Shown here: piece by piece, positions 3,218-63,905 of the stretch
Position numbering within the stretch: the first letter of the stretch is position 1
Layout of the letters: every line of letters begins with the position of its first letter
DNA from: a virus
Lineage: Duplodnaviria; Heunggongvirae; Uroviricota; Caudoviricetes
Length of the DNA: 64,000 nt
Reading direction: 5' to 3' (one strand)
Virus record (IMG/VR): IMGVR_UViG_3300037400_003880
The notes under the pieces: generated by a model
What the model was told of the DNA's origin: nothing
Databases searched by the model: none
What the model saw: the letters and a program-made list of their open reading frames with translations, nothing else
Program-made: the position numbers and the translations under genes

Positions 3218-3261
3218 TATATTTAATAAATATGTTAAAAATATATGGAGGTAGATTTAAA

Positions 3262-42600: not shown

Positions 42601-43503
42601 ATGAATAAGGCTTCTTTTTATATGGCAGTTGGTCTGCCGGGGTCTGGCAAGTCTTACCTGTTTGAATCTGTAATCAAGAAGTTGTCTCCTGACTGTGTAT
42701 ACGTATCTTCTGATGCAATTCGGGAGGAGGTATTCGGTGACGTAAACGATCAGGAGCATAATGAGCAGGTGTTTGAGCTGATGAAGCGCCGCACCCTTGA
42801 TTCTCTGAAGGCAGGAGTGTCGGTTTATTATGACGCAACCAATGTGTCCGCAAAGCATCGTATCGGTTTCCTTAAGGGACTTTCCCATATCAAGGACATC
42901 GCACGGGTATGTGTGTTGAACACTCCGCCCGTTGAGGTTGTAAAGTTCCGTAACGCCCATCGTGAGCGCAAGGTTCCGGAATACGTTATTGACAGAATGC
43001 TGAAGTCTTTCAATGTGCCTGACTATTCTGAGGGATGGGATGTAATTCTTCGTTATGGTTCTGATGAAGACCATAATGCAATTGAGGAAATTACTTGCTC
43101 TTCTGCAAAGCTGTCTCATGATAATCCTCATCACTCTGCAACTGTTGGAGTTCATATGTTTAATGCAGCAAACTATGCTGAAAAGGAATTGAAGGCAAAT
43201 TGCGAAGTCATCGAAGCAGCCTGCTATCATGATATTGGTAAGCCTATTTGTAAAGTATTTCAGGATGCAAAGGGCGAGCCGTCTGATGTAGCTCATTACT
43301 ACAACCATGAGAATGTCGGAGCATACCTATATCTTTCTCATGCAAAGAATGACGGGGTATCCCTGTATATTGCTAACCTGATTGCTCACCATATGGATTT
43401 TTTCAAGGGTGAAAAGTATGTTGAGAAGATTCATAATCGTTTTGGAGAGGGATTCTTTCGGGATCTCCAGCTCCTTCATAAGGCTGATGTAAATGCACAC
43501 TAA
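42601..43503 (+). CDS. polynucleotide-kinase-like P-loop kinase fused to an HD phosphohydrolase domain (RNA/tRNA repair candidate)
   Basis: Walker A GLPGSGKS and DxT-like YYDATN. C-terminal HD motifs H..HDIGK..H. Confidence 0.7.
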   Translation: MNKASFYMAVGLPGSGKSYLFESVIKKLSPDCVYVSSDAIREEVFGDVNDQEHNEQVFELMKRRTLDSLKAGVSVYYDATNVSAKHRIGFLKGLSHIKDIARVCVLNTPPVEVVKFRNAHRERKVPEYVIDRMLKSFNVPDYSEGWDVILRYGSDEDHNAIEEITCSSAKLSHDNPHHSATVGVHMFNAANYAEKELKANCEVIEAACYHDIGKPICKVFQDAKGEPSDVAHYYNHENVGAYLYLSHAKNDGVSLYIANLIAHHMDFFKGEKYVEKIHNRFGEGFFRDLQLLHKADVNAH

Positions 43504-48193: not shown

Positions 48194-48271
48194 GCCGGTG
48201 AAGCTTAAGTGGTATAAGCACTCCCCTTATAAGAGAGAGATAGATGGGTTCGAGTCCCTCGACCGGCACCA
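48194..48271 (+). tRNA. tRNA, identity uncertain (anticodon loop CTTATAA reads TAT; Ile2-like?), non-canonical T-stem
   Basis: Acceptor GCCGGTG/GACCGGC. D-arm GCTT..AAGC. T-loop TTCGAGT. CCA encoded. The anticodon stem has one mismatch. Confidence 0.45.
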
Positions 48272-48330: not shown

Positions 48331-48510
48331 ATGACTGTAAAAGATTTAAGCGTAAAGATGGAAGCCTTAATTGAAAATGGTTAGGCTGACATTGAAGTCA
48401 TGGTATATGATATGCATGAGGGGTGGAAGCCTTATGTATATGAGGATACTTCTTTCCATGGCGGAAAGATTTATCTTGGACTTCCTGAAGTGAAAGTAAC
48501 AAGTGAATAA
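48331..48510 (+). CDS. small hypothetical protein (59 aa, 1 in-frame TAG)
   Basis: GAGGTGAGAG ribosome-binding site, then ATG at 48331. A TAG at codon 18 is read through to TAA 48508-10. Confidence 0.4.
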
Positions 48511-48511
48511 T

Positions 48512-48540
48512 TTGACTTTCTAAGAAAAATATGCTATAAT
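48512..48540 (+). promoter_or_regulatory. conserved promoter
   Basis: TTGACTTTCTA..ATGCTATAAT. Confidence 0.55.
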
Positions 48541-48546
48541 ATTTAT

Positions 48547-48614
48547 AGACAGGTCAGCAATTCAAATTTTAAGGACTATGCTTTTAACATAAAATTCTTA
48601 AACAATCTGTCTTG
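48547..48614 (+). ncRNA. Y RNA-like stem-closed element (short, stem-loop only)
   Basis: 5' AGACAGGTCAGCAA pairs with 3' CTGTCTTG. Family motif present. Confidence 0.4.
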
Positions 48615-48654
48615 AAATGGTTCGGCATCACTCCATTCAAAAGCGGTGTCAGAT

Positions 48655-48728
48655 GCGCCTATCGTCTAAAGGTAGGACACTACACTTTTAATGTAGGTAT
48701 TCGGGTTCGAGTCCCGGTGGGCGCACCA
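48655..48728 (+). tRNA. tRNA-Lys (TTT), CCA encoded
   Basis: Acceptor GCGCCTA/TGGGCGC. Anticodon stem CTACA/TGTAG with loop CTTTTAA. T-loop TTCGAGT. Confidence 0.75.
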
Positions 48729-48732
48729 GCAT

Positions 48733-48835
48733 ACGGCAGTTCAGCAATCCACTTTTTATTGCAGCCAAAAATTTTTGCAAGCGTATGGTTCGACTCCTGC
48801 GTTAATTCGGAGACGGTCTCCAAAGGTCTGTCGTG
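48733..48835 (+). ncRNA. Y RNA-like stem-closed element with T-loop-like GGTTCGACTCC and internal GGAGACGGTCTCC hairpin
   Basis: 5' ACGGCAGTTCAGCAATCC ... 3' CTGTCGTG. Family motif TCAGCAA present. Confidence 0.4.
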
Positions 48836-48841
48836 TATTAT

Positions 48842-48932
48842 GTCGAGATGGGTGAGTTGGCTTAAACCAGCGGTTTGCTAAACCGCCGACCGGCACAAAG
48901 CCGGTCCGAGGGTTCGAATCCCTCTCTCGACG
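48842..48932 (+). tRNA. tRNA-Ser (GCT), class II
   Basis: Acceptor GTCGAGA/TCTCGAC. Anticodon stem GCGGT/ACCGC with loop TTGCTAA. Long variable arm GACCGGCACAAAGCCGGTC. T-loop TTCGAAT. Confidence 0.7.
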
Positions 48933-48963
48933 CTTTCAAATTATTGAGAAAGAGGTGAGTCCA

Positions 48964-49194
48964 TTGGGCATAAAAGATTCCAACTGCTGGAAATATTTTC
49001 TGAGTAAAGCTCCATATGATGTTCTTGTAACAATTATGAAGAATACAGGAATTTGTCCAGTTGCCGCTTTGATGGGAGAATTTGACATTAACATATGTCT
49101 TCTTCATCATCCTCATAGAATATTTAAGACTCTTGAGGAAGAAGCTGTTTGTTATGAGTGCCTTCAAAAATGGCTAAACGAAAAAACTCAATGA
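48964..49194 (+). CDS. small Cys-rich protein inside the tRNA array (start uncertain: GTG 48955 or TTG 48964)
   Basis: Track ORF 48955-49194. AGAGGTGA ribosome-binding site. CxxC...CYEC. Confidence 0.35.
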   Translation: MGIKDSNCWKYFLSKAPYDVLVTIMKNTGICPVAALMGEFDINICLLHHPHRIFKTLEEEAVCYECLQKWLNEKTQ

Positions 49195-49195
49195 T

Positions 49196-49224
49196 TTGAC
49201 TTTTGAAGAAAAAAGTGATATAAT
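49196..49224 (+). promoter_or_regulatory. conserved promoter driving the suppressor tRNA pair
   Basis: TTGACTTTTGA..AGTGATATAAT. Confidence 0.55.
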
Positions 49225-49292
49225 TATTATAGTAAAGGCACAAACAGCAAGAATATCGTCCAACCTTAGAACGATACGTGTCTTGGCGAGAT

Positions 49293-49368
49293 TTCGGTTT
49301 CGCCAAGTGGGTAAGGCAGCGGGCTCTAACCCCGCCATTCGGGGGTTCAAATCCCTCAACCGAAACCA
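49293..49368 (+). tRNA. amber suppressor tRNA (anticodon CTA) on a tRNA-Gln-like scaffold, CCA encoded
   Basis: TTCGGTT TC GCCAAGTGGGTAAGGC A GCGGG CTCTAAC CCCGC CATTC GGGGGTTCAAATCCCTC AACCGAA A CCA. U1:A72. The D-arm and T-loop are nearly identical to the tRNA-Gln at 48116. Confidence 0.8.
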
Positions 49369-49439
49369 TTCTCCTTCGCCAAGCGGTAAGGCAGCGGGCT
49401 CTAACCCCGTCAGCCAAGGTTCGAATCCTTGAGGAGAAG
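49369..49439 (+). tRNA. second amber suppressor tRNA (anticodon CTA), directly abutting the first; no CCA
   Basis: TTCTCCT TC GCCAAGCGGTAAGGC A GCGGG CTCTAAC CCCGT .. CAAGGTTCGAATCCTTG AGGAGAA G. The anticodon stem and loop are the same as copy 1. Confidence 0.75.
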
Positions 49440-49443
49440 TGTA

Positions 49444-49530
49444 AAGACGGTTCAGCAAAACACAAATGGTTAAAGAAAAATTCTGCAAAAATTTTTTGAA
49501 ACGGTTCAAATCCGTAAATTTCCCGTCTTG
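49444..49530 (+). ncRNA. Y RNA-like element with closing stem AAGACGG/CCGTCTT and internal T-arm-like ACGGTTCAAATCCGT
   Basis: Family 5' motif GACGGTTCAGCAAAAC. 7 bp terminal stem. Confidence 0.45.
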
Positions 49531-49535
49531 TTAAT

Positions 49536-49564
49536 TTGACTTTTTTCTTAGAGTATGATATAAT
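49536..49564 (+). promoter_or_regulatory. conserved promoter
   Basis: TTGACTTTTTT..ATGATATAAT. Confidence 0.55.
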
Positions 49565-49613
49565 AAATATGTACTTAAAAGTACGGAGCGAAATTCTCCT
49601 TAAACTACAAAAT

Positions 49614-49687
49614 GCGGCTATGGTGTAGTGGTAACATTTCTGCCTTCCAAGCAGACGTGGCGGGTTCGAGTCCCGTTAGCCGCTCCA
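49614..49687 (+). tRNA. tRNA-Gly (TCC), CCA encoded
   Basis: Acceptor GCGGCTA/TAGCCGC. Anticodon stem TCTGC/GCAGA with loop CTTCCAA. T-loop TTCGAGT. Confidence 0.75.
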
Positions 49688-49730
49688 GCTGTTGGTAAAC
49701 AGGTTGGCTCAATTGCCCGAAGCTTCCAAA

Positions 49731-49971
49731 AGACAGGTCAGCAATCCTTATAGAAATGTAATATTTAGAATAGGATTGAAAACTAACGGTATTAGTTTTG
49801 CTCGGGACGACTACTATGAAAGGAATGAGGTAAAACTCTCAACCGAGCTTATAGCGGCTGCCGGCTTTCGTGGCAGGAACCTTCGCCAGTCGTTACTACA
49901 CAGCGACATTAAAGAAGTGTGAGTATTGATGCAGCCTCCCTTTACGGGATTTAGATTTAGTACCTGTCTTG
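49731..49971 (+). ncRNA. Y RNA-like element, long form (about 241 nt)
   Basis: 5' AGACAGGTCAGCAATCC ... 3' TACCTGTCTTG. Highly structured interior. Confidence 0.4.
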
Positions 49972-50460
49972 AAAATTGAATGGTCGGCATTCGCTTGTGC
50001 CTTCCCCATAAGTTAAATTCAAGCCTCTACTGTGCTTATATCCCGTCTATTATGTTCGTCCGGAAGTGCGGCACATTAAATAACGCGGCGAAAAGAACAT
50101 TAGAACTCTCGTATATAGACTCAGGATAAGTGGAGCGAGACTAAATAAGTACCCGTTTGGCACGAGTTGTGCTAAATCCGAATCGTTCCTTATACTGCCA
50201 TATGAGGAGCGTCTGTGGCAGCAGTAATGAGACAGAAAGCTCTCAGAGTTGTACAGCTCAAAGCTTTCTCGCAATCCGCCGGTGTGAATGGGCGGTACCT
50301 TGTGAGTTAGTAGATGGACATAACTCTCCGTCTGGTTTGGCGTGAACGGACTGCTCAAAGGGTTCAACTCCCTTTCAATAGGATGTGCCTATTGCTACGG
50401 TTTAGGAGTTGGCACCAAGTACAAGCCTCCACGCGGCGGTGCTGGATTTGAACTAATTGT
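49972..50460 (+). ncRNA. unclassified structured non-coding region (about 490 nt) with T-loop-like AAGGGTTCAACTCCCTT and several GTCTG/CAGAC long-range complements
   Basis: No credible ORF; the track ORFs here overlap on both strands and are low-complexity. Lies between a Y-like element and a conserved promoter. No tmRNA, RNase P or group I core motifs were recognised. Confidence 0.3.
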
Positions 50461-50472
50461 ACAAAAGATTAT

Positions 50473-50501
50473 TTGACTTTTTATAAAAATTATGATATAA
50501 T
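50473..50501 (+). promoter_or_regulatory. conserved promoter
   Basis: TTGACTTTTTA..ATGATATAAT. Confidence 0.55.
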
Positions 50502-50522
50502 ATTTATAGAAAGTAAAGAGAA

Positions 50523-50598
50523 CGCGGGTTAGAGCAGTTGGTAGCTCGTCAGGTTCATTACCTGAAGGTCAGGGGTTCGAGTCCCTTACCCGCAACCA
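50523..50598 (+). tRNA. tRNA-Met/fMet-like (CAT), C1·A72 mismatch, CCA encoded
   Basis: Acceptor CGCGGGT/ACCCGCA. D-arm GAGC..GCTC. Anticodon stem TCAGG/CCTGA with loop TTCATTA. Confidence 0.6.
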
Positions 50599-50601
50599 AA
50601 T

Positions 50602-50677
50602 CGCCCCATCGTCTAAATGGTAAGGACGCGTCCCTTTCAAGGAGGTAATGCGAGTTCGATTCTCGCTGGGGTGACCA
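50602..50677 (+). tRNA. tRNA-Glu (TTC), CCA encoded
   Basis: Glu-type D-arm GTCTAAATGGTAAGGAC. Anticodon loop CTTTCAA. T-arm GCGAGTTCGATTCTCGC. Confidence 0.65.
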
Positions 50678-50685
50678 GCACGTTA

Positions 50686-50762
50686 CGACAAATCAGCAAA
50701 ACACTTCTTTCTTCAGAAATTAGAGAGATAAAGTCGTGCATTATCTTTAATAGTTTGTCGTG
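50686..50762 (+). ncRNA. Y RNA-like short element
   Basis: 5' CGACAAATCAGCAAAACAC ... 3' TTTGTCGTG. Confidence 0.4.
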
Positions 50763-50769
50763 AAAAATG

Positions 50770-50838
50770 GCGCGGTAGTGTAAAGGTAGCATAGTAGAGT
50801 CATTATCTACTGATTCAAGTTCGAGTCTTGACTGCGCA
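50770..50838 (+). tRNA. short tRNA with CAT anticodon (Met or Ile-lysidine type), reduced D-arm
   Basis: Acceptor GCGCGGT/ACTGCGC. Anticodon stem GTAGA/TCTAC with loop GTCATTA. T-arm CAAGTTCGAGTCTTG. Confidence 0.45.
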
Positions 50839-50842
50839 ATAA

Positions 50843-50966
50843 AAGATGTGTCAGCAAAACACTTAGTTATGGCATTTTAAGCCTCAGAATGTTGGTTCGA
50901 GTCCAACCCTCTCTTTGGAGAGGTAGCTTAATTGGCAGAGCGGAGAAAAACGAAAAACACATCTTG
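50843..50966 (+). ncRNA. Y RNA-like element with permuted tRNA-like module
   Basis: 9 bp closing stem AAGATGTGT/ACACATCTT. Interior: T-arm GTTGGTTCGAGTCCAAC, acceptor 3' strand CCTCTCT, TT, acceptor 5' strand GGAGAGG, TA, D-arm GCTTAATTGGCAGAGC. Confidence 0.5.
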
Positions 50967-51190
50967 TTTTAATGCCCGAGTACCCCAATCGGCAGAGGGA
51001 GCGGACTTTGATGTATTCTATCACAAAAGTGATACTACTGAAAAGTAGAGAGTGCCCCAAGAGAAATCTTGGAAGTAGAAGATGGCTAAAACGGCGAAGG
51101 CGAATACAGAACGCCGTGCAAGGATTTTAGGCAGACGGAAAGTTTTAGATGGATTTTTGCGTGATACCACTTATAAGTGAGGTGATAGAA

Positions 51191-51697
51191 ATGCAGAAGT
51201 ACACTAAAGAGTGGTTAGAAGAGCTTTGTGCAAACAGCTTTTCTTACGCAGAGGTTTTAAGAAAAGCCGGTCGTAAGCAAGGCGGTGGAACACAAGCGAC
51301 TCTAAAAAAGAAGATTGAAGAATTTAATATTGATGTCTCTCATTTTACGGGGCAAGGGTGGAATGGTCATTCTAATACCGTTGTTGATGTAAATAGAGAG
51401 AAATATTCAATAGAAGAAATCTTCATTAAGAACAGCCCAGTTACACAAAAAGTTATGAGAGGATATGTTGAAAGGCACAATCTTCTTGAGTACAAATGTG
51501 TTAATTGTGGTTGTGATGGAAATTGGCAAGGCGGCACAATCTCATTAGAGATTGACCATATTGATGGAGATAATTCTAATAATGAATTATCAAATCTCCG
51601 TTATTTATGTCCCAATTGTCACGCTCTTACTGAAACTTATCGAGGAAAAAACAAAGCCCTGAAATCTATGTGTAGAGACTGTACACCATCAGCCTAA
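51191..51697 (+). CDS. HNH homing endonuclease
   Basis: GGTGATAGAA ribosome-binding site, then ATG at 51191. HNH motif EIDHIDGDNSNNELSNLRYLCPNCHALTE. A 33-codon ORF upstream (51082-51183) lies in a different frame. Confidence 0.75.
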   Translation: MQKYTKEWLEELCANSFSYAEVLRKAGRKQGGGTQATLKKKIEEFNIDVSHFTGQGWNGHSNTVVDVNREKYSIEEIFIKNSPVTQKVMRGYVERHNLLEYKCVNCGCDGNWQGGTISLEIDHIDGDNSNNELSNLRYLCPNCHALTETYRGKNKALKSMCRDCTPSA

Positions 51698-51713
51698 ATC
51701 GAAAGATATGGTT

Positions 51714-51878
51714 AAGACACAGTCCAGACTACAACACAGCAATGTGGCTATGGTGACATAGTGTAGTACGAAAATCCGTATAGTGTGGGTTCGAATCCCA
51801 TTTCGGGCACCATTCTTATTGGGCTTATATGGCTTGGCTGTCACCATATGGCAGCGGCTCAATAGGAAACCAAGCCTT
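51714..51878 (+). ncRNA. Y RNA-like/tRNA-like structured element
   Basis: AAGACACAG...ACACAGCAATG motif. Internal stem CTATGGTGACA/TGTCACCATAG. T-arm-like GTGGGTTCGAATCCCAT. Confidence 0.35.
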
Positions 51879-51950
51879 AAGACGGTTCAGCAACTCTATA
51901 TAATAGAACTGTGTATTTGTGAACGCTGTTAATTTATATTGTCCGTCTTG
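51879..51950 (+). ncRNA. Y RNA-like short element
   Basis: 5' AAGACGGTTCAGCAACTC ... 3' GTCCGTCTTG. Confidence 0.45.
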
Positions 51951-51957
51951 TTTAAAT

Positions 51958-52032
51958 CGAGGACGTGGTGTAATTGGTAACACACCACATTTGGGATGTG
52001 GGGTAGCGGTTCGAGTCCGACGTCTTCGACCA
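51958..52032 (+). tRNA. tRNA-Pro (TGG), CCA encoded; weak T-stem
   Basis: Anticodon stem CCACA/TGTGG with loop TTTGGGA. T-loop TTCGAGT. Acceptor (C)GAGGAC/GTCTTCG with G·U pairs. Confidence 0.55.
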
Positions 52033-52129
52033 GCCCATAAGGGCAATCTTGATTTTTTCATCATTATTCATAATAATACCTCCAGAGTTATTATGAAAGT
52101 GTCGCATTATTGCGGAATGCGACACAAAT

Positions 52130-52206
52130 CGGGAATTAGCCCAATTGGCAGAGGCATACGTTTAAGGTGCGTATTAGTGAGGGTTCGAGTCCCTTGTTCC
52201 CGACCA
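52130..52206 (+). tRNA. class-I tRNA with Leu-type anticodon (loop TTTAAGG/TTAAGGT; TAA or AAG), A73, CCA encoded
   Basis: Acceptor CGGGAAT/GTTCCCG. D-arm GCCCAATTGGCAGAGGC. Anticodon stem (A)TACGT/GCGTA(T). T-arm GAGGGTTCGAGTCCCTT. Preceded by a 10 bp hairpin GTGTCGCATT..AATGCGACAC. Confidence 0.5.
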
Positions 52207-52393
52207 TCAGGTAAGCAGAGCTACCCGTCATTCGGTGACAAAGCTGCTCGGAGCGTTAACACGGATTTTGGATTAGTAAACTACTACCGGCGAGAGGTCG
52301 CTCCTCTCGATATGTAGCTTGCGGCAAACGCTCCGTTAATAAATAAGAAGGCGAAGTAACTAGTCCACCATTAAAAGAAAGGAGAGAATAGTC

Positions 52394-52897
52394 GTGGATA
52401 TGAAAAAGTTTCATCGTGGTAATGGAGACATTGTAACTCATGATGAAATGGTCAAGATTGCAGCTGATTATATCAGTGCTGATCCATCTCAGGAGTATGA
52501 AATTACTGTAGGGACTGATAGCCAAAACCATTCACAAACAAAAATGGTTGAAGTTATTGCTCTTCACAGAATTGGACACGGCGGCATCTTCTTCTATAGG
52601 GTTGATTATGTTCGTAAGATTAAGTCACTAAAGGAGAAGATTGTAGAAGAAACCTCGCGTTCTCTTGAGAATGCATCAGGGTTACTTGACGATGTTCAAC
52701 TTCAGTTGCTTGAAGAAGGCATTGATATTGATGACTTGAATATTCATTTCATTATTCATTGTGATATTGGTCATGAAGGAAAAACTCAGGCTTTAATTAA
52801 GGAAATTGTAAGTTGGGTTCATTCCGCAGGTTATGAATGTCAAATCAAGCCAGACAGCTATGCGGCTTCTGGTATTGCAAATAAGATTTCTAAATGA
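52394..52897 (+). CDS. hypothetical protein inside the tRNA array (H..GHGG / DIGHEG motifs; RNase-H-like fold?)
   Basis: AAAGGAGAG ribosome-binding site. Track ORF. Preceded by a structured leader with 7-8 bp helices. Confidence 0.5.
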   Translation: MDMKKFHRGNGDIVTHDEMVKIAADYISADPSQEYEITVGTDSQNHSQTKMVEVIALHRIGHGGIFFYRVDYVRKIKSLKEKIVEETSRSLENASGLLDDVQLQLLEEGIDIDDLNIHFIIHCDIGHEGKTQALIKEIVSWVHSAGYECQIKPDSYAASGIANKISK

Positions 52898-52916
52898 GGT
52901 GTTAATCACCTCAGAT

Positions 52917-52994
52917 GCCGTGGTAGTCCAACTGGCAGGAGACGTTTGCCTTAGGAGCAAAACAGTATGGGTTCGAATCCCTTCTACGGCACCA
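52917..52994 (+). tRNA. class-I tRNA with anticodon TAG (Leu CUA/CUG codons), A73, CCA encoded
   Basis: Acceptor GCCGTGG/CTACGGC. Anticodon stem TTTGC/GCAAA with loop CTTAGGA. T-loop TTCGAAT. Confidence 0.55.
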
Positions 52995-52996
52995 TT

Positions 52997-53090
52997 AAGA
53001 CAGCGCAGCAAATTTGAATAGCTCCATTTATATACACATAAAATGTATTTTAACAAAAGTGTCTCTGCTATAATGACACGAGCTGTCTTG
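52997..53090 (+). ncRNA. Y RNA-like element
   Basis: 5' AAGACAGCGCAGCAAATT ... 3' GAGCTGTCTTG. Confidence 0.4.
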
Positions 53091-53110
53091 TAATTTAATT
53101 CAAACTTATT

Positions 53111-53230
53111 AAGACTCTCCAGCAATCTGAGAAGGATTTCTTTCCAGTGTAGCCAAGTGGGTTAAGGCAGCGGCATCAAAGCCGTGATTCTCCGGTTCGA
53201 ATCCGGACTCCGGACAAAAAAAGAGTCTTG
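53111..53230 (+). ncRNA. Y RNA-like element enclosing a pseudo-tRNA (anticodon CAA, degenerate acceptor)
   Basis: 8 bp closing stem AAGACTCT/AGAGTCTT. The interior TCCAGTG TA GCCAAGTGGGTTAAGGC A GCGGC ATCAAAG GCCGT .. TCCGGTTCGAATCCGGA CTCCGGA has the Gln/Sup-like D-arm. Confidence 0.45.
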
Positions 53231-53236
53231 AGTTAT

Positions 53237-53309
53237 GGTGTAAGTGGTGAAATGGCTATCACGGCGGTTTGTGGCACCGCAGTTAAGAGTTCGATTCTCT
53301 TCTTATGCC
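53237..53309 (+). tRNA. tRNA-His (GTG) with encoded G-1:C73
   Basis: 8 bp acceptor GGTGTAAG/CTTATGCC. D-stem GTGA/TCAC. Anticodon stem GCGGT/ACCGC with loop TTGTGGC. T-arm AAGAGTTCGATTCTCTT. Confidence 0.7.
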
Positions 53310-53330
53310 CTTTATTTATCAATTAAAATA

Positions 53331-53359
53331 TTGACTTTTTGAGAAAAATATGGTATAAT
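53331..53359 (+). promoter_or_regulatory. conserved promoter
   Basis: TTGACTTTTTG..ATGGTATAAT. Confidence 0.55.
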
Positions 53360-53382
53360 ATTTATAGAAAGTGAGGGAAAAT

Positions 53383-53622
53383 ATGAAACAATTTATTATT
53401 TTAGAGGTATGCAATGAGGATTATTACATTTTCGATACTGTTAATGAAGCTATTCTCTATGCAATAGGGAAGGTTTGTAAATGGGTAAAAGATGAGGTGT
53501 TGGGAATGACAAAAGAAAGCGCAGGAGAGATTATCCTTGAAATGATGGATAGTAAGACTGACCATTCTTTTTATGTCGATGACGTTTTTTACTGTTATCC
53601 CGCACAATATATTAAGGAATAA
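53383..53622 (+). CDS. hypothetical protein
   Basis: AGTGAGGGAAAA ribosome-binding site, then ATG at 53383. Confidence 0.45.
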   Translation: MKQFIILEVCNEDYYIFDTVNEAILYAIGKVCKWVKDEVLGMTKESAGEIILEMMDSKTDHSFYVDDVFYCYPAQYIKE

Positions 53623-53639
53623 GTAAAGGAGAGAGTTAA

Positions 53640-53768
53640 ATGAGTAAAGAGCTGAGAATCCAGATGATGGAAAATCGAATTGTCTTGCTTATGTCTCGCG
53701 GCGAGACTATGAATGCAAGAATTGTAGCGAAGCTAAAGCGACAGCTTCGCAAGCTCAAGGGCGAGTAA
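53640..53768 (+). CDS. small basic protein (42 aa)
   Basis: AAGGAGAGAG ribosome-binding site. MSKELRIQMMENR... Below the track cutoff. Confidence 0.35.
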   Translation: MSKELRIQMMENRIVLLMSRGETMNARIVAKLKRQLRKLKGE

Positions 53769-53780
53769 TCGCCCACTTAT

Positions 53781-53854
53781 GGGGATGTGGTGCAAGTGGC
53801 AGACGCGGCTGTCTCAAAAACAGTTTTTTGTGGGTTCGAATCCCACCATCCCCA
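53781..53854 (+). tRNA. class-I tRNA with anticodon CAA (Leu UUG codon), A73
   Basis: Acceptor GGGGATG/CATCCCC. Anticodon stem GCTGT/ACAGT with loop CTCAAAA. T-arm GTGGGTTCGAATCCCAC. Confidence 0.55.
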
Positions 53855-53942
53855 CTGGCGCGCAGGTTTGATGCAATGCGACATATACAGAAATCCGTGT
53901 ACTATAGAGTATTCCTGCACAATCTATAGCGGTATTTAATTT

Positions 53943-54089
53943 AAGACACGCACAGCAAAGTTTTTTATAAATGGACAGTAAATCCGTTGGGGAAGTCCCT
54001 TCGTAGGTGCAAATCCTATCCTCGCCCACCAATATGGGTGAGTAGCCAAGTAGACAAAGGCGGCGGAACCATATGTAAAAAGTGTCTTG
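53943..54089 (+). ncRNA. Y RNA-like element with permuted tRNA-like module
   Basis: Closing stem AAGACAC/GTGTCTT. Interior: T-arm-like GTAGGTGCAAATCCTAT, acceptor 3' strand CCTCGCC plus CACCA, ATAT, acceptor 5' strand GGGTGAG, TA, D-arm GCCAAGTAGACAAAGGC. Confidence 0.45.
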
Positions 54090-54093
54090 AGAT

Positions 54094-54179
54094 GCGGAGA
54101 TGCCCGAGTGGTTGATGAGGACGGTCTGCAAAACCGTTGGCTTGCGCCCGCGTGGGTTCGAATCCCACTCTCCGCTCCA
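54094..54179 (+). tRNA. class-II (long variable arm) tRNA with anticodon GCA (Cys codons) and U73, CCA encoded
   Basis: Acceptor GCGGAGA/TCTCCGC. Tyr/Ser-like D-arm CCCGAGTGGTTGATGAGG. Anticodon stem ACGGT/ACCGT with loop CTGCAAA. 14 nt variable arm TGGCTTGCGCCCGC. T-arm GTGGGTTCGAATCCCAC. Confidence 0.55.
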
Positions 54180-54182
54180 AAT

Positions 54183-54256
54183 GCAGAATTAGTTTAATGG
54201 TAGAATTGGTGCTTCCCATGCACTTGACGCGGGTTCGATTCCCGTATTCTGCTCCA
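54183..54256 (+). tRNA. tRNA-Gly (CCC), CCA encoded
   Basis: Acceptor GCAGAAT/ATTCTGC. Anticodon loop TTCCCAT. T-arm GCGGGTTCGATTCCCGT. Confidence 0.7.
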
Positions 54257-54258
54257 GT

Positions 54259-54385
54259 AAGGTAGGTCAGCAAGAAGAACTAAAATTTTGTTCCAACTCT
54301 TATGTTGATGGTTCGAGTCCATCCTCACTCGCAAGTGTGAGTAGTTCAACTGGCAGAACAAAGGGTAAAAATTTAACCTATCTTG
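54259..54385 (+). ncRNA. Y RNA-like element with permuted tRNA-like module
   Basis: Closing stem GGTAGGT/ACCTATC with TCAGCAAG. Interior: T-arm GATGGTTCGAGTCCATC, acceptor 3' strand CTCACTC, loop GCAAGT, acceptor 5' strand GTGAGTA, D-arm GTTCAACTGGCAGAAC. Confidence 0.5.
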
Positions 54386-54417
54386 ATTATATCTGAGTTT
54401 AATTCTCTTCGGAGTAT

Positions 54418-54508
54418 CAAAGGCACAAAACAGCGGCGTACTTCTAAGTTCGATTCTTAACTCCTCCACCAATATGGGGGAGTAGCCCTTGGAGGGCTAT
54501 GTGTCTTG
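54418..54508 (+). ncRNA. Y RNA-like/tandem tRNA-like fragment element
   Basis: T-arm-like CTAAGTTCGATTCTTAA. CTCCTCC ACCA ATAT GGGGGAG TA GCCC. Ends ATGTGTCTTG. Confidence 0.35.
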
Positions 54509-54512
54509 ATTT

Positions 54513-54585
54513 GTCTCATTAGTTCAACAGGATAAAACAGTTTCCTCCTAAGAAACAGTTACAGGTTCGAGTCCTGTATGGGGCA
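54513..54585 (+). tRNA. tRNA-Arg (CCT)
   Basis: Acceptor GTCTCAT/ATGGGGC with two G·U pairs. Anticodon stem GTTTC/GAAAC with loop CTCCTAA. T-arm ACAGGTTCGAGTCCTGT. Confidence 0.55.
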
Positions 54586-54642
54586 CTGGGCGTTACTGCC
54601 CAAGTTATTTTCGACGTAAGTCTTGCGGCATGACTATAAACT

Positions 54643-54750
54643 GCCGTTGATGATGCGGAGGTGCGCAAGTGGTCATAAGCGCATAGCCTTGAAAGCTATT
54701 GTGTCAGCTTAGTATCTGACCCGTGGGTTCGAATCCCACTCTCCGCGCCA
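54643..54750 (+). tRNA. tRNA-Ser (TGA), class II, CCA encoded
   Basis: Acceptor GCGGAGG/TCTCCGC. Anticodon stem ATAGC/GCTAT with loop CTTGAAA. 21 nt variable arm. T-arm GTGGGTTCGAATCCCAC. Confidence 0.7.
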
Positions 54751-54894
54751 GACATGCTTTTGTAATTTCCATGTAATGAACAAGAAATTATTACCTTAGT
54801 GGTGGCTGAGCTATCTTTCAGTAAGTTTTAATAAATAATAAAATTAAATTTAAAATTTATTGAAGGGTAGCTTGGCTTAATACAGGTTATTTAT

Positions 54895-54923
54895 TTGACT
54901 TTCTTAGGAAAGTATGCTATAAT
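54895..54923 (+). promoter_or_regulatory. conserved promoter
   Basis: TTGACTTTCTT..ATGCTATAAT. Confidence 0.55.
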
Positions 54924-54989
54924 ATTATTATAGTGAGAAGATAAAACAGCAAACAAAAAGATTTATCTTGTGAAAAGGAGAAATGTGTA

Positions 54990-56459
54990 ATGAGTAATTT
55001 TGCAAACGCTTTTGGTAGAATGGCAGACATGACTATGACCGAGAATGGTGGACGCGCTTTCAGTACTACCGGTTCAGCTTTGCTTGACCTGTTCGCTAAT
55101 ATCGGTGGCATGAGAAATCGAGACACTTCTGATGTTGTTTCTGCATGGCAGGCAGCTCGGAAGGAAGATAAGGAGCTTGCGGATAATCTGATCCTCTATG
55201 CCCGTGATATTCGTAACACTGGTCTCGGTGAGCGTAAGATTGGTCGTGCCCTCCTGAAGGCTCTCGGTGATGCTGATCCTCAGAAGGTAATCCGTAACTT
55301 TGAAACCATTGTTGCGGCAGGTCGTTGGGATGACTTGTTCATCTTTGTGGGTAACCCTGCAATTGAGAACAAGATGTGGGATTATGTTGAAGAGCAGTTC
55401 CGTGCTGATGTAAAGGGTGTAAAGCTTAACCAGCCTATCTCTTTGCTCGGTAAGTGGATGCCTTCCATTAACACCAGCTCTCAGGAGACTCGTAAGCTCG
55501 CACGTCGTGCCTGCGCGCACTTGGGTCTGACTGAGCGTACTTATCGTAAGAGCCTTAGCGCGCTTCGTAAGCATATCAACATTGTTGAGCGTCTTATGAG
55601 CGCCGGCGAGTGGGATAAGATTGACTTCGAGTCTGTACCTTCTGTAGCTATGTCTCGTTATATCAATACTTATAACAAGCGTTGTCAGGAGCGTTTTGCT
55701 GAATACAAGGCTTCCCTCGTAAAGGGTGAAGCTAAGGTTAATGCAGCAACTTTGTATCCTTATGACATTGTTATGAAGGCATTGAATAGCGGATACTACG
55801 GGAAGATGACTCTTGATGCTGTTGACGAAGCACAATGGAAGGCTCTGCCTAACTATGTGTCTGGTGAGAATGAGGTCGTTGTAATGGCGGACGTGTCTGG
55901 TTCTATGAGCTGTGACATGAATCGTCCTATGGCAACTTCTATCGGTCTTGCCACCTATTTCGCACAGAGGAACAAGGGTGCATATCACAATATGTATCTT
56001 ACCTTTACCTCTCAGCCTGCTTTCATTCATCTCAAGGATGAGTGGAGTTTGGCAGACTGCCTTAACTATGTGAAGAGTCATGGTGTAGGTTATAGCACTA
56101 ATCTGGATGCGGCTTTCGCTGCAATCTATGAGGTTGCTGTTCGCACCAATGAAGCTCCAAAGGCACTGGTTGTAATCTCTGACATGGAGATTGATAGCTG
56201 GTACTCTGGTAACTTCTGCGACTCTATCGCAAGTAAGTGGGAGAGAAAGTATGCAGCCGTTGGCTTGAAGGCTCCTAAGCTTATCCTTTGGAACGTAGAA
56301 TCTCGTGGTGGACGTGTGCTCGCACAGCAGTCTGATCGTGTAGGTTTCGTTTCTGGATATGGCGTTGGTCCTTTCGCAAACTTGACCTCTCTTATCGACA
56401 AGAGTGCTTACGAGGCAATGAAGGAAATTCTTTCTAAGCCTGCATTCCAGTGGAAGTAA
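54990..56459 (+). CDS. Ro60/TROVE-like protein with C-terminal vWA domain (Rsr-like, DUF2828-type; tentative)
   Basis: AAAAGGAGAAA ribosome-binding site. An N-terminal alpha-helical region of about 290 aa is followed by a vWA MIDAS motif VVVMADVSGSMS and LVVISDMEID. Lies directly downstream of the Y RNA-like/tRNA array. Confidence 0.55.
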   Translation: MSNFANAFGRMADMTMTENGGRAFSTTGSALLDLFANIGGMRNRDTSDVVSAWQAARKEDKELADNLILYARDIRNTGLGERKIGRALLKALGDADPQKVIRNFETIVAAGRWDDLFIFVGNPAIENKMWDYVEEQFRADVKGVKLNQPISLLGKWMPSINTSSQETRKLARRACAHLGLTERTYRKSLSALRKHINIVERLMSAGEWDKIDFESVPSVAMSRYINTYNKRCQERFAEYKASLVKGEAKVNAATLYPYDIVMKALNSGYYGKMTLDAVDEAQWKALPNYVSGENEVVVMADVSGSMSCDMNRPMATSIGLATYFAQRNKGAYHNMYLTFTSQPAFIHLKDEWSLADCLNYVKSHGVGYSTNLDAAFAAIYEVAVRTNEAPKALVVISDMEIDSWYSGNFCDSIASKWERKYAAVGLKAPKLILWNVESRGGRVLAQQSDRVGFVSGYGVGPFANLTSLIDKSAYEAMKEILSKPAFQWK

Positions 56460-56462
56460 TGT

Positions 56463-56486
56463 AAGGGCGGCTCGTCCGCCTTTATA
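56463..56486 (+). terminator. terminator-like hairpin GGGCGGCTCGTCCGCCTTT
   Basis: GGCGG/CCGCC stem followed by TTTAT. Confidence 0.5.
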
Positions 56487-56492
56487 TAAATA

Positions 56493-56722
56493 TGGCGGTT
56501 CAGCAACTTACTTTATGAGAAATTGGAGTTAAATTTATTTTAACAGGCTTTTGGCTGCCGAAGTCAAATGTGACCCATCGAGGACATGGGCAAAAATCCT
56601 AAAAGGTGCCGTCATGATATACGATTCTTCCAGCAATAGTGATGCTATGTTTAGGAAAATTTTACAATTATGCCTTGATTGAAGAGCAGAATCGTGCGGC
56701 ATTATAGTTTCTATAGTGCCGC
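56493..56722 (+). ncRNA. Y RNA-like element, long and divergent
   Basis: 5' TGGCGGTTCAGCAACTT ... 3' GTGCCGCTTTA. No ORF. Confidence 0.3.
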
Positions 56723-59978: not shown

Positions 59979-60914
59979 ATGAAGCATTATGTAGATATTG
60001 AGCGTTTTAAGGTAAAGTACGACGAGTGCATGCGCGCCGGTGACGAGATTGTCGTACAAGAGAAGATTGATGGAGCCAATGCATCTTTTACTTACGATCC
60101 CGCACAGGATAAGGTTCTGGCTTTTTCTCGTAAGAATGAGCTGAATGAGGCAAATAATCTCCGTGGTTTCTGGGATTGGACTCAGCGTCTTGACAAGAAG
60201 GGTGTCGCTCATATGACTCAGAATGGTCGCTATGTAATTTTCGGCGAGTGGCTTGTAAAGCATACTGTTCGTTATCCTGAGCATGAGTATAATCATTTCT
60301 GGATGTTCGATGTATGGGATACGCAGGACGAGAAGTGGCTTCACTATGATGATGTTCGTGCAATTCATGCGGGACTTTTGAGTGTAGCCCAGCTCACGCA
60401 GGAGGTTATTAACTTCGTCCCTGTATTCTATGACGGTCCGTTCATTTCTTGGGATCACCTTTACCAGATGGTTGGACGTACTGACGTAAATGCGGAGCCT
60501 TGCGGCGAGGGCATCGTAATTAAGAACCAGAACACTATTGACATTCCGGAGTGGCGCCTGCCTACCTATGTCAAGATTGTATCGGAGAAGTTCTCTGAGG
60601 TTCACGTTGGTCATGCTAAGAAGCTCATTGATCCTGCTGTTCTTGCAGCTCGTGAGGCAGAGCGTCAGATGGTTGCGACTGTAGTTACCGAGCGCCGTGT
60701 AGCTAAAATATTGGAAAAGTTTGTAGATAATGGTATACTTCCAGAAGACTGGGACGAAAAAAATATGAAGGATGTTGCTAAGAATCTCCCTAAAGCAGTT
60801 TATGAGGATTGTATAAAAGAAGAACCAGATATTGTAAAAGCGTGTGAAGACTTTGGAAAAATATGTGGTAAGATTTCTATGGATTATGTTCGTCAATTTC
60901 TTTCTGCTCGATAA
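59979..60914 (+). CDS. ATP-dependent RNA ligase (Rnl2-like nucleotidyltransferase)
   Basis: Motif I EKIDGAN (adenylated lysine), motif IV EGIVIKNQ, motif V KIVSEKF. Size about 311 aa. GAGAGGAGAA ribosome-binding site. Confidence 0.7.
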   Translation: MKHYVDIERFKVKYDECMRAGDEIVVQEKIDGANASFTYDPAQDKVLAFSRKNELNEANNLRGFWDWTQRLDKKGVAHMTQNGRYVIFGEWLVKHTVRYPEHEYNHFWMFDVWDTQDEKWLHYDDVRAIHAGLLSVAQLTQEVINFVPVFYDGPFISWDHLYQMVGRTDVNAEPCGEGIVIKNQNTIDIPEWRLPTYVKIVSEKFSEVHVGHAKKLIDPAVLAAREAERQMVATVVTERRVAKILEKFVDNGILPEDWDEKNMKDVAKNLPKAVYEDCIKEEPDIVKACEDFGKICGKISMDYVRQFLSAR

Positions 60915-62160: not shown

Positions 62161-62676
62161 ATGAGAAACTTACTTGTTGTCGTAGATATGCAGAATGATT
62201 TCATTACCGGCGCCCTGGCTAATCCAGAGGGGCAGAAGATTGTCGGGAAGATTGCGGATTTTATTTATGATTTTCCCGGAGGAGTTGTATATACCGCAGA
62301 CACCCATTATGATAATTATTTGGAAACTCAAGAAGGAAAGCGGCTTCCTATCTCTCATTGTATTGAAGGGTCTGAAGGATGGAGAATTGTTCCAGAAATT
62401 GAAAGAGCCCTTGAAGCTCGAGATGCAGCCCAGTTTATTAAGCATTCTTTCGGCAGCAGAGAACTCGCAAAATTTGTTCAGTATCATTTTTATGATGAAG
62501 TATATTTTGTCGGGGTTTGTACAGATATTTGCGTAATTTCTAATGCAATGCTTTGCAAGGCGTTTGCTCCTGAAATAAGGATTGTTGTGCTGAAGGATAT
62601 GTGTGCTGGCGTAACACCAGAAAGCCATGAGACTGCACTTAAGGCGATGCAGGCTTGTCAGATTGATGTTGAGTAA
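62161..62676 (+). CDS. pncA: nicotinamidase (isochorismatase-family cysteine hydrolase)
   Basis: VVVDMQNDF, catalytic Cys in VGVCTDICV, Lys/Asp triad context. Confidence 0.75.
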   Translation: MRNLLVVVDMQNDFITGALANPEGQKIVGKIADFIYDFPGGVVYTADTHYDNYLETQEGKRLPISHCIEGSEGWRIVPEIERALEARDAAQFIKHSFGSRELAKFVQYHFYDEVYFVGVCTDICVISNAMLCKAFAPEIRIVVLKDMCAGVTPESHETALKAMQACQIDVE

Positions 62677-62687
62677 GGAGAGTTATA

Positions 62688-63905
62688 ATGAGATTTGAAC
62701 CAATTATTAAGAGCTTGCTTGAAAACGATATGTATAAATTTAGCATGGGGCAGGCTATTTATCACCAGTTTCCTGAGTATATGACGACATGGACGTTTAA
62801 ATGTCGTAATGAAGGAGTTAAGTTTACTTATGAGATGGTCAAGGAAATCAAGGAGCAGATTAAAGCTTATTGCAGTCTCCGTTTTACGGAGGATGAGCTT
62901 GATTACCTCGATGAGATTAAGTGGATCAAGGGTTCGTATGTAAACTTCCTGCGTATCTGGCAGCCGAGATATGAGGACTTCGAGATTTCTGGCGAGGGGG
63001 CATACGGGCTGAGTATTGAAACCAAGGGAACGTGGCTTAATACTTCGATGTATGAGATTCCCGTGCTCGCAATTGTAAATGAAGTTTACTTCCGAATGCG
63101 CTATGATTACGACCATCTTTATCAGGTATTTAAGGAGAAGTTCCAGCAGAAGTCTAAAAAGCTTGTAAGTGGAGAATATCATATGGGGAGATTCTCTGAG
63201 TTTGGTCTTAGACGTAGGCTGTCTGGTGAAGCACAGGATTACGCAGTAAGAAATCTTCGTAATTTTTTGCTCAATAGTCTTGATCGAGCGAGATTCGTAG
63301 GAACGTCGAACGTTTATCTGGCAAAGAAATACGGACTTACTCCTGTCGGCACGATGGCGCATGAGTGGATTATGTGCGTAGGGCAAGGTAATCATCGACA
63401 CAATCCAGCTTATTCTAACTATTACGCTCTCAATGCATGGATTAAGGAATATGGCGTACTTAATGGTATCGCATTGACTGATACTATTACTACTGATGTT
63501 TTCCTGCGAGACTTTGACCTTGAGAAGGCGACCTTGTTTAGCGGAGTTCGTCATGATTCCGGCGACCCTCGTATTTGGGGTGAAAAGATTATTGACCATT
63601 ATTGCGAACTTGGTATTGATCCGCAGTCTAAGACGCTTCTGTTTTCGGATAGCCTTGACTTTGAGCGAGCTACATCTCTTTCCAACTACTTTTATGACAG
63701 AATCAATGTAGCTTTCGGTATCGGTACCTATCTATCTAATGATACCGATGTGCCGGCGCTCAATATCGTGATGAAACCAACATTTTGCAATGGACAGGAT
63801 GTGGCAAAGCTGTCTGATGCAGAGGGTAAGTGTATGTGTAAAAATGAAGCATATGTGAAGTACCTTAAGCGATCCATTGGATGGCGTATTGACCACGAGA
63901 TTTAA
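62688..63905 (+). CDS. pncB: nicotinate phosphoribosyltransferase
   Basis: Size about 405 aa. GTSN and TMAHEW motifs typical of NAPRTase. Adjacent to pncA. Confidence 0.8.
   Translation: MRFEPIIKSLLENDMYKFSMGQAIYHQFPEYMTTWTFKCRNEGVKFTYEMVKEIKEQIKAYCSLRFTEDELDYLDEIKWIKGSYVNFLRIWQPRYEDFEISGEGAYGLSIETKGTWLNTSMYEIPVLAIVNEVYFRMRYDYDHLYQVFKEKFQQKSKKLVSGEYHMGRFSEFGLRRRLSGEAQDYAVRNLRNFLLNSLDRARFVGTSNVYLAKKYGLTPVGTMAHEWIMCVGQGNHRHNPAYSNYYALNAWIKEYGVLNGIALTDTITTDVFLRDFDLEKATLFSGVRHDSGDPRIWGEKIIDHYCELGIDPQSKTLLFSDSLDFERATSLSNYFYDRINVAFGIGTYLSNDTDVPALNIVMKPTFCNGQDVAKLSDAEGKCMCKNEAYVKYLKRSIGWRIDHEI

Follow-up and report, generated by a model that had tools for sequence, protein, structure and literature searches.

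A family of structured handle RNAs in a phage tRNA array, next to a DUF2828 gene for a protein with a predicted Ro60 fold

Ro60 and Y RNAs form a conserved RNA-surveillance pair that is still poorly understood. Among bacteria and phages, to our knowledge, only YrlA-type RNAs, carrying the motif GNCGAA, and TROVE proteins have been linked so far. The presence of stable RNAs in the transfer RNA (tRNA) clusters of phages is an old observation, made in T4 and T5. The present analysis concerns a stretch of 64,000 nucleotides, referred to below as the window, of a gut-type phage of the class Caudoviricetes (IMG/VR record IMGVR_UViG_3300037400_003880). Between positions 48546 and 56696 of the window, 16 stem-closed elements, called handle RNAs here, are encoded on the + strand, interleaved with tRNA genes and flanking a gene for a protein of the family DUF2828 with a predicted Ro60 fold. 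The handle RNAs are a separate family resembling the Ro60/Y RNA system and standing outside YrlA.

The contacts of Ro60 on Y RNAs are made chiefly with the terminal helix, on its 5' strand, and with the conserved bases beside it, the presumed contact motif being GNCGAAN0-1G / GGUCCGA (PMC4201824). Phage Ro60 proteins bind Y-like RNAs encoded beside them (PMC4201824, PMC12135203). In the Felixounavirus Bas63, gp130, a Ro60-like protein encoded next to a tRNA array, counters the ppl defence, and the existence of hidden Y RNAs was guessed by the authors of that work (PMC11482910).

Each handle RNA is closed by a terminal stem of 7-9 bp, made by its two ends. A scan of the window sequence revealed, on the 5' side of the handle, a 7-nt strand (consensus AAGACNN), 2-4 nt and the hexamer CAGCAA, present in all elements except E14, which contains the variant CAGCGG; on the 3' side, an interior of 10-220 nt is followed by the complementary strand NNGUCUU and an unpaired G. 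The terminal stem is present in the minimum free energy (MFE) fold of all 15 elements folded, with CAGCAA mostly unpaired. The original prediction, made without database searches, listed 14 element starts. Thirteen of them belong to real stem-closed elements with the terminal stem in the MFE fold (Table 1), and E3, E15 and E17 are members beyond that list. The start at 51714 was rejected: AAGACAC is followed 17 nt later by CAGCAA, but a closing strand is absent. The final element had been extended to 56722; E16 really ends at 56616 and is followed by E17 and by a terminator.

Among the CAGCAA sites of the + strand at 48-57 kb, 14 of 17 are closed, within 330 nt, by a perfect 7-bp complement with a G after it, while the background rate, obtained by the same closure test elsewhere in the window on either strand, is 3 of 43. 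Closed elements number 15, against a mean of 1.1 in dinucleotide shuffles of the window; a generic 7-bp closure succeeds at 9-16% of arbitrary positions. Stem sequences vary with pairing kept: A:U, C:G and U:A occur at position 2, A:U, G·U and G:C at position 4, and C:G and U:A at position 5, while positions 6-7 are occupied by any pair. The eighth stem pair, which lies outside the selection criterion, is paired in 37 of 48 elements and comprises six pair types. A compensatory stem change was found at the same place after the gene, namely, ACGAUUC/GAAUCGU in the window and AUGAUUC/GAAUCAU in a relative (L007). A relaxed scan (6/7 pairs, [CT]AGC core) was dropped as too noisy, and the strict signature with strand and shuffle controls was used instead. 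The exact 16-mer TAAGACRGKTCAGCAA occurs in 120 stretches of IMG/VR with a closing stem in only 7, the others being chance matches.

Members with a tRNA-like core of the YrlA type were aligned separately (14 sequences from six phage lineages, including Felixounavirus allfine, mycobacteriophage LeBron and Bacillus phage KoopaTroopa). In this alignment, 89.8% of cells are paired, against 68% in shuffled and at most 49% in slid controls, and changes on both sides were found in 20 of 23 pairs. The covariation anticipated for the terminal stem and the tRNA-like module is thereby borne out, each of the four helices (terminal stem, T-arm, acceptor hairpin, D-arm) showing compensatory changes. As a family of structured RNAs, the elements are real.

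The pairing of handle RNAs with the DUF2828 gene was found widely. No close relative of the window phage was detected among GenBank phages; metagenomic relatives exist, with Ro-like proteins 50-98% identical to that of the window. Handle RNAs are present in 43 of 48 IMG/VR loci encoding relatives (26-69% identity); over all 48 loci, the gene strand holds 142 closed elements and the opposite strand 17. They also flank the homologous DUF2828 gene in five distant cultured phages, the proteins of which are 32-36% identical to that of the window. Felixounavirus allfine has four copies in the tRNA array just 3' of the gene, of the form AGAAGACCNN-N3-CAGCAA...NNGGUCUGG, one with a YrlA-type core; Listeria phage P100plus has three tandem copies in the gene leader; Mycobacterium phage LeBron has three in tandem between gp53 and a terminator, with no tRNA array nearby; four copies were found in Bacillus phage KoopaTroopa and two in the KVP40-like Vibrio phage V09. 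In each of these loci, the gene strand carries 2-5 closed elements and the opposite strand 0-1, the shuffle mean being 0.1-0.3. The covariance model R1, built from the YrlA-type subset of handle RNAs, gave 57 matches in 284 kb, all on the gene strand, with new full-length members scoring 62-89 bits. A partial R1 match in the window at 54152-54211 (32.7 bits, model positions 50-109) was rejected; it covers the tRNA-Cys/tRNA-Gly junction and is a tandem-tRNA false positive. In the P100plus locus (MT178766.1), a ROOL match just under the Rfam threshold (86 vs 99.1 bits, E 8e-16) was also noted at 4468-5019 of the locus, inside the tRNA array and 1 kb upstream of the DUF2828 gene with its three leader handles.

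The protein encoded at 54990 belongs to PHROG 850 "RNA-binding protein" and was assigned by Pfam to DUF2828 (1.4e-35) and DUF7788 (1.3e-21). The AlphaFold2 model has a pLDDT of 92 and a pTM of 0.90. In a Foldseek search of the PDB with this model, the 12 best matches were all Ro60 (phage phiLo, Xenopus, human and Deinococcus; E 4e-9 to 8e-6), aligned over the full length (506-576 aligned columns) with TM-scores of 0.36-0.57, at least 0.47 for all but the Deinococcus entry; below them, only isolated vWA domains were found. As modelled, the protein has the Ro60 fold, consisting of a helical-repeat ring and a C-terminal vWA domain. The MIDAS (metal ion-dependent adhesion site) motif DxSxS is located at residues 301-305 (DVSGS), and D301, S303 and S305, as well as T370 and D398, are invariant in 50 homologues. 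A TROVE/vWA-like gene had been proposed at this place; the Ro60 fold, by model, and the vWA domain agree with the proposal, but the Pfam family is DUF2828 and the protein is not recognized as TROVE (PF05731). Three handle RNAs belong to the transcription unit of this gene: E15 lies between its promoter and its Shine-Dalgarno sequence, ending about 5 nt before the latter, and E16 and E17 follow its stop codon and precede the terminator.

The interiors are of several types. Four elements (E7, E12, E13 and E14) contain a permuted mimic of a tRNA, with the T-arm first, then the acceptor hairpin and then the D-arm; the original prediction of this order thus holds for these four and does not extend to the remaining 12 of the 16. 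E11 contains a whole tRNA-like fold (53143-53215) with a 6-nt 'anticodon' loop, called 'tRNA-???' by ARAGORN and scoring 41.4 bits with the tRNA covariance model. A T-arm-like hairpin only is present in E2 and E4, and AU-rich hairpins occupy the remainder. In E12, a V arm and a T arm are followed by a 7-bp acceptor stem in which A-CCA is encoded, by an AUAU loop and by a D arm; E14 comprises a T-loop, a 7-bp acceptor stem followed by A-CCA-AUAU and a D-like hairpin, so that A-CCA is encoded in the tRNA-like interiors of both.

In the Infernal search suggested for YrlA, the model RF02553 matched E7 at 50863-50973 (35.9 bits, E 6e-5, model positions 1-114) and E13 at 54299-54363 (33.1 bits); these were the only noteworthy non-tRNA matches. 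An element of LeBron scored 39.8 bits. All scores lie below the YrlA gathering threshold of 69 bits, 35.9 bits being the best in the window. At gathering thresholds, Rfam detected only tRNAs in the window; at permissive E-values, YrlA was the only relevant family, and no known ribozyme, ROOL, GOLLD, tmRNA or group I intron matched the elements. E9-E17 lie, as is expected of YrlA, within 4 kb and on the same strand as a Ro60 counterpart, which is here a structural homologue. Of the proposed Y RNA/YrlA-like identity, the architecture, the sub-threshold YrlA matches and the Ro60-fold neighbour therefore stand, but the score, the motif and most interiors do not.

Table 1. Features of the window, with original start predictions that were confirmed and with counterparts in the loci of metagenomic relatives (L001 and so on; positions within each locus). 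z, folding z-score; R1, score with covariance model R1
Feature	Positions	Strand	Predicted start	Description	Orthologs in relatives
E1	48546-48614	+	48547	uAGACAGgu-CAGCAA...CUGUCUuG; AU-rich hairpin interior; 8-bp terminal stem in MFE fold, CAGCAA unpaired; R1 28.2 bits; start at about +1 of promoter 48512-48540	
E2	48733-48835	+	48733	ACGGCAG/CUGUCGU-G, C:G at stem position 2; T-arm-like hairpin; 4 nt 3' of tRNA-Lys, 6 nt 5' of tRNA-Ser	
E3	49235-49285	+		Short handle hairpin AAGGCAC aaa CAGCAA...GUGUCUU-G; 3' of promoter 49196-49224; ends 7 nt before first tRNA-CUA	L001 3522-3591
E4	49444-49530	+	49444	T-arm-like hairpin ACGGUUCAAAUCCGU; starts 4 nt after second tRNA-CUA	
E5	49730-49971	+	49731	242 nt; 9-bp stem AAGACAGGU/ACCUGUCUU	Size-matched: L004 5279-5493, L001 8494-8734
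E6	50685-50762	+	50686	ACGACAAAU/GUUUGUCGU-G; between tRNA-Glu and tRNA-Met; z -2.7; R1 31.2 bits	
E7	50843-50966	+	50843	YrlA-type: T-arm, closed acceptor hairpin CCUCUC-UUUG-GAGAGG, D-arm; R1 101 bits	
E9	51879-51950	+	51879	AU-rich interior; ends 7 nt before tRNA-Pro	L001 5834-5909
E10	52997-53090	+	52997	AU-rich interior; starts 2 nt after tRNA-Leu(UAG)	
E11	53111-53230	+	53111	Handle around normal-order tRNA-like fold	L001 7173-7288
E12	53943-54089	+	53943	YrlA-type, permuted tRNA-Tyr-like; z -3.1; R1 72.6 bits	L004 9287-9432
E13	54259-54385	+	54259	YrlA-type: 9-bp stem, T arm, closed acceptor hairpin, D arm; R1 108 bits	
E14	54420-54508	+	54418	CAGCGG variant; z -3.5; ends 4 nt before tRNA-Arg	L003 613-701, L001 3057-3150
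Ro-like gene promoter	54895-54923	+		TTGACT-N17-TATAAT, extended -10	
E15	54938-54970	+		Bare 33-nt handle hairpin, 5' leader of Ro-like gene	Leader handle kept: L001 9952-9985, L003 992-1024, L006 355-388
Ro60-like protein gene	54990-56459	+		489 aa, DUF2828 + DUF7788/vWA	
E16	56492-56616	+	56493	AUGGCGG/CCGUCAU-G, U:A at stem position 2; Ro-like gene trailer	L003 3440-3564
E17	56621-56696	+		ACGAUUC/GAAUCGU-G; second trailer handle RNA	L003 3569-3647, L007 3781-3858
Intrinsic terminator	56696-56722	+		12-bp stem then T-run; closes unit of Ro-like gene, E16 and E17	
Promoter starts	48052, 48281, 48512, 49196, 49536, 50473, 53331, 54895, 56732				
Kinase-HD gene	42601-43503	+		P-loop kinase (AAA_33) fused to HD phosphohydrolase	
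RNA ligase gene	59979-60914	+		PF09414	

The tRNA array, on the + strand, spans 48.1-54.75 kb of the window. In it, 19 tRNAs were detected by ARAGORN and 20 by Rfam, two of them being tRNA-CUA suppressors. Nine near-identical promoters, TTGACT-N17-TATAAT with an extended -10, divide the array into units. Genes of RNA repair enzymes are present in the neighbourhood, together with genes for a metallophosphatase and a macro domain protein. The original prediction had drawn a parallel with modules containing rtcB; both the RNA ligase gene and the kinase/HD gene that it named are there, but the ligase is of the family PF09414 and not RtcB. The kinase-HD protein is likely an RNA end-healing enzyme.

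The handle RNAs are probably a distinct class of phage Y-like RNAs, which would serve as ligands of the Ro60-like protein and be freed by tRNA processing. From the anatomy, covariation and synteny of the elements, and from the modelled fold, we infer the following steps of transcription, release, binding and autoregulation. The handle RNAs would be co-transcribed with the tRNAs from the repeated phage promoters and released by the enzymes maturing the flanking tRNAs: nine elements end 4-7 nt short of a tRNA 5' end, the RNase P site, and six have their start 2-7 nt past the 3' end of a tRNA. By analogy with Y RNAs, the Ro60-like ring protein would bind the handle; each RNA would thus follow the Y RNA plan, in which a constant protein-binding handle is combined with a variable module. 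In the resulting set of ribonucleoproteins, the variable modules may engage different partners, and for the tRNA-mimic modules these may be tRNA-binding host or defence factors. E15, located beside the ribosome-binding site, is a candidate operator, by which the protein could repress its own translation. The position of a homologue beside RNA-repair genes and the report on Bas63 gp130 as an anti-ppl protein suggest that such ribonucleoproteins may act in conflict with the host.

Several points weigh against this reading. The Foldseek TM-scores against Ro60 are moderate (0.5-0.57), and phmmer and a profile search against the PDB detected only integrin vWA domains and no Ro60. The Ro60-contact motif GNCGAAN0-1G is absent from its expected 5' place, which is occupied by CAGCAA (in one case CAGCGG); it is for this motif and for the YrlA score that the handle RNAs were filed as a variant of the Ro60/Y RNA system and not as members of YrlA. 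Since the elements were collected by demanding a 7-bp stem, the stem statistics are partly circular; the closure test, the shuffles, the strand count over 48 loci, the R1 search and the eighth stem pair provide the non-circular evidence. Both the expression of the RNAs and the binding of the handle are predictions. The co-location with tRNAs would fit a role in transcript processing as well. Finally, Bas63 gp130 alone protects T7 against the ppl defence (PMC11482910), and at least this activity of a homologue accordingly needs no phage-encoded RNA.

The location of the elements speaks for an explanation that is considered unlikely, namely, that they are processing or insulator modules of polycistronic tRNA transcripts, acting as RNase-recognised or folding spacers with no role for the Ro60-like protein. 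Most elements lie within 2-7 nt of tRNAs, and tRNA arrays accompany the DUF2828 gene in most lineages. However, copies are also found where there are no tRNAs to process: in the leader and trailer of the Ro-like gene, in LeBron (three) and in the leader of the P100 gene (three). The T5 tRNA array is, in turn, devoid of such elements: in the T5 tRNA region (30 kb, NC_005859), no closed CAGCAA element, no DUF2828 gene and no R1 match were detected. Moreover, a passive spacer would need neither an invariant hexamer nor interiors that mimic tRNA.

According to a second explanation, the tRNA-like members are circularly permuted tRNA precursors, which would be rejoined by the ligase and end-healing enzymes and opened in the acceptor loop by RNase P and 3' processing, to give functional, chargeable tRNAs. 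A 7-bp acceptor stem is encoded in both E12 and E14, with A73 as the discriminator, CCA and then an AUAU loop; E12 is similar to tRNA-Tyr, for which the window gave no ordinary gene call; a ligase gene and a kinase-HD gene are nearby; and the YrlA of M. smegmatis undergoes cleavage by RNase P and addition of CCA (PMC4201824). Nevertheless, 12 of the 16 elements keep the handle without a tRNA-like core. E12 has the T-loop UGCAAAU and A33 in the anticodon-like loop, deviations kept in its ortholog in L004, and no bulge-helix-bulge or other excision signal is evident. This explanation is regarded as very improbable.

Hardly any weight is given to the idea that the elements are debris of decayed tandem tRNA duplicates, in which YrlA would be mimicked by the T-arm of a dead copy together with the D-arm of the copy after it. 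Tandem tRNAs do yield false YrlA-type matches (PMC4201824), as at 54152-54211 of the window, but the idea, raised as an alternative in the original prediction, was contradicted by the mutual pairing and covariation of the two acceptor strands, which form a hairpin with compensatory changes in 6 of 6 scored pairs; in addition, the handle is kept between phages with about 33% identical proteins, and orthologous elements hold their positions across relatives. Equally implausible are DNA-level repeats, whether miniature inverted-repeat mobile elements, sites of recombination or homing, or signals for transcription: short terminal inverted repeats, many copies and homing endonuclease genes in the array would suit them, but the repeat sequence varies while complementarity stays, target-site duplications were not seen, the interiors are mutually unrelated, and the G·U pairs in the stems (G·T in DNA being A·C on the opposite strand), together with CAGCAA on one side and one strand only, indicate an RNA and not a DNA structure.

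Beyond the reading of the handle RNAs as Y-like ligands, a broader proposal is put forward tentatively, as possible and not as the expected outcome: DUF2828 proteins and CAGCAA-handle RNAs might form an unrecognised phage-wide ribonucleoprotein system, in which the ring would be loaded with up to about 16 RNAs, many of them tRNA decoys, would shield phage translation or blunt tRNA-sensing or tRNA-cutting defences, and would regulate itself through the handle of its own mRNA. The proposal covers, among others, Felix O1-like phages, Listeria P100, KVP40-like vibriophages, cluster L-type mycobacteriophages, large Bacillus phages and TAG-recoded gut phages.

Analysis of the array and its surroundings showed a number of further features. 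The split tRNA at 50974-51812 (ARAGORN, introns allowed) contains a 762-nt intron bearing an HNH gene, and the rejected site at 51714 sits in the 3' part of this intron. The 5' exon is located at about 50974-51010 and the 3' exon, ending in ACCA, at about 51773-51812; the intron is modelled in the anticodon loop, and the anticodon identity (Phe, Gln or Lys) is set by the exact junction. The HNH endonuclease open reading frame (ORF) occupies 51149-51697 (PF13392/PF01844), no Rfam group I intron match was found for the intron, and a homologous HNH ORF is present among the tRNAs of L001 (7646-8150). An ORF of the family PF04308 'RNaseH_like' (E 1.7e-46) lies inside the array at 52394-52897 and is kept in relatives (L004 7480-7983, L005 172-675 and L008 7439-7942). 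A weak tRNA-like gene at 48194-48268 (Rfam tRNA, 35.9 bits), directly 3' of tRNA-Gln, was not called by ARAGORN. The stretch at 49972-50460, 3' of E5, is about 490 nt of noncoding DNA with neither tRNA nor convincing ORF; no Rfam match (E up to 10) and no nucleotide conservation in the compared loci were detected, and its folding z-score is -1.28. A size-matched noncoding stretch follows a long handle element in L004 (5494-5870).

At 49293-49439 and 48333-48508 of the window and at 3184-3460 and other places of L001, the following was noted: the two tRNA-CUA (amber suppressor) genes of the window stand in tandem, and in-frame TAG codons are present in otherwise open small ORFs of both the window and L001. 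The codon pattern suggests that TAG may be read as a sense codon by the window phage. At 62161-63905, a gene for an isochorismatase-family protein (nicotinamidase-like, PF00857) adjoins one for nicotinate phosphoribosyltransferase (PF04095), and L008 contains genes for NAD synthase and a NAMPT-like protein as well. The genes at 62161-63905 may represent an NAD+ salvage module of the kind used by phages against NAD-depleting defences.

The handle RNA family, namely, the CAGCAA handle, the pairing with DUF2828, the copy number and the breadth, was not found described in the literature, the coverage of which was incomplete, so that absence is not proof, or in Rfam 15. The handle RNAs of Felix O1-like phages, Listeria P100, KVP40-like phages and mycobacterial phages appear to be undescribed. 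With them, a second Ro60-related protein family, DUF2828 (PHROG 850; 709 phage records in GenBank), would gain its own class of RNA partners with a simple searchable signature, in a copy number far above that of any reported Y RNA. The pairing occurs in model phages amenable to genetics, whose hosts are E. coli, Salmonella, Listeria, Vibrio and Mycobacterium, and this makes testable the ligands of phage Ro60-like proteins, the reason why tRNA mimics persist beside real tRNAs and the possible involvement of handle RNAs in the counter-defence by Bas63 gp130. Many "spacers" of phage tRNA arrays would prove to be genes, and the handle, as a natural tag, could be used to load RNAs onto the ring protein.

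Compared with YrlA and Y RNAs (RF02553; PMC4201824; Yrl1/2 of phiLo, PMC12135203), handle RNAs have the same modular plan with a terminal stem and a loop motif on the 5' side, and four of them contain the T-arm/acceptor hairpin/D-arm domain; they are likewise encoded on the same strand as a Ro60-fold gene, within about 1-2 kb of it, in several copies per locus, and an acceptor stem with CCA recalls the YrlA of M. smegmatis. Unlike YrlA, they have CAGCAA instead of GNCGAAN0-1G or CGAA and reach Rfam scores of half the gathering threshold; most lack the tRNA-like domain, the copies number 16 instead of 1-4 and are interleaved with tRNAs, and the partner is DUF2828 and not TROVE.

In the annotation of the T5 tRNA cluster (NC_005859; 5285-8950 and 15849-16567 of the T5 stretch), eight RNAs are entered as 'stable RNAs with unknown functions', and some of these resemble tRNAs. 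Like handle RNAs, these are small, partly tRNA-like RNAs between phage tRNA genes, co-processed with them; however, the stem and CAGCAA handle is absent from T5 RNAI, III, IV, 1, 2, 3 and 2H, and the T5 RNAs may be a class of their own, as unexplained as the handle RNAs.

The work on Bas63 gp130 (PMC11482910) identified no RNA; the array of allfine holds four handle RNAs. The DUF2828 homologue of allfine is in the same position as gp130, directly upstream of the tRNA array, and the two proteins presumably belong to the same family, judging by genus and synteny.

Unlike Ro60/TROVE proteins (PDB 1YVP, 2NVO and 9KOP), the protein encoded at 54990 is DUF2828+DUF7788 with no sequence similarity to them detectable by phmmer or hmmsearch, and the TM-score is only about 0.55. 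Like them, it is modelled over its full length as a helical-repeat ring with a vWA domain carrying a DxSxS MIDAS, and its gene, like the TROVE genes of phages (PMC7824862), neighbours RNA-repair genes.

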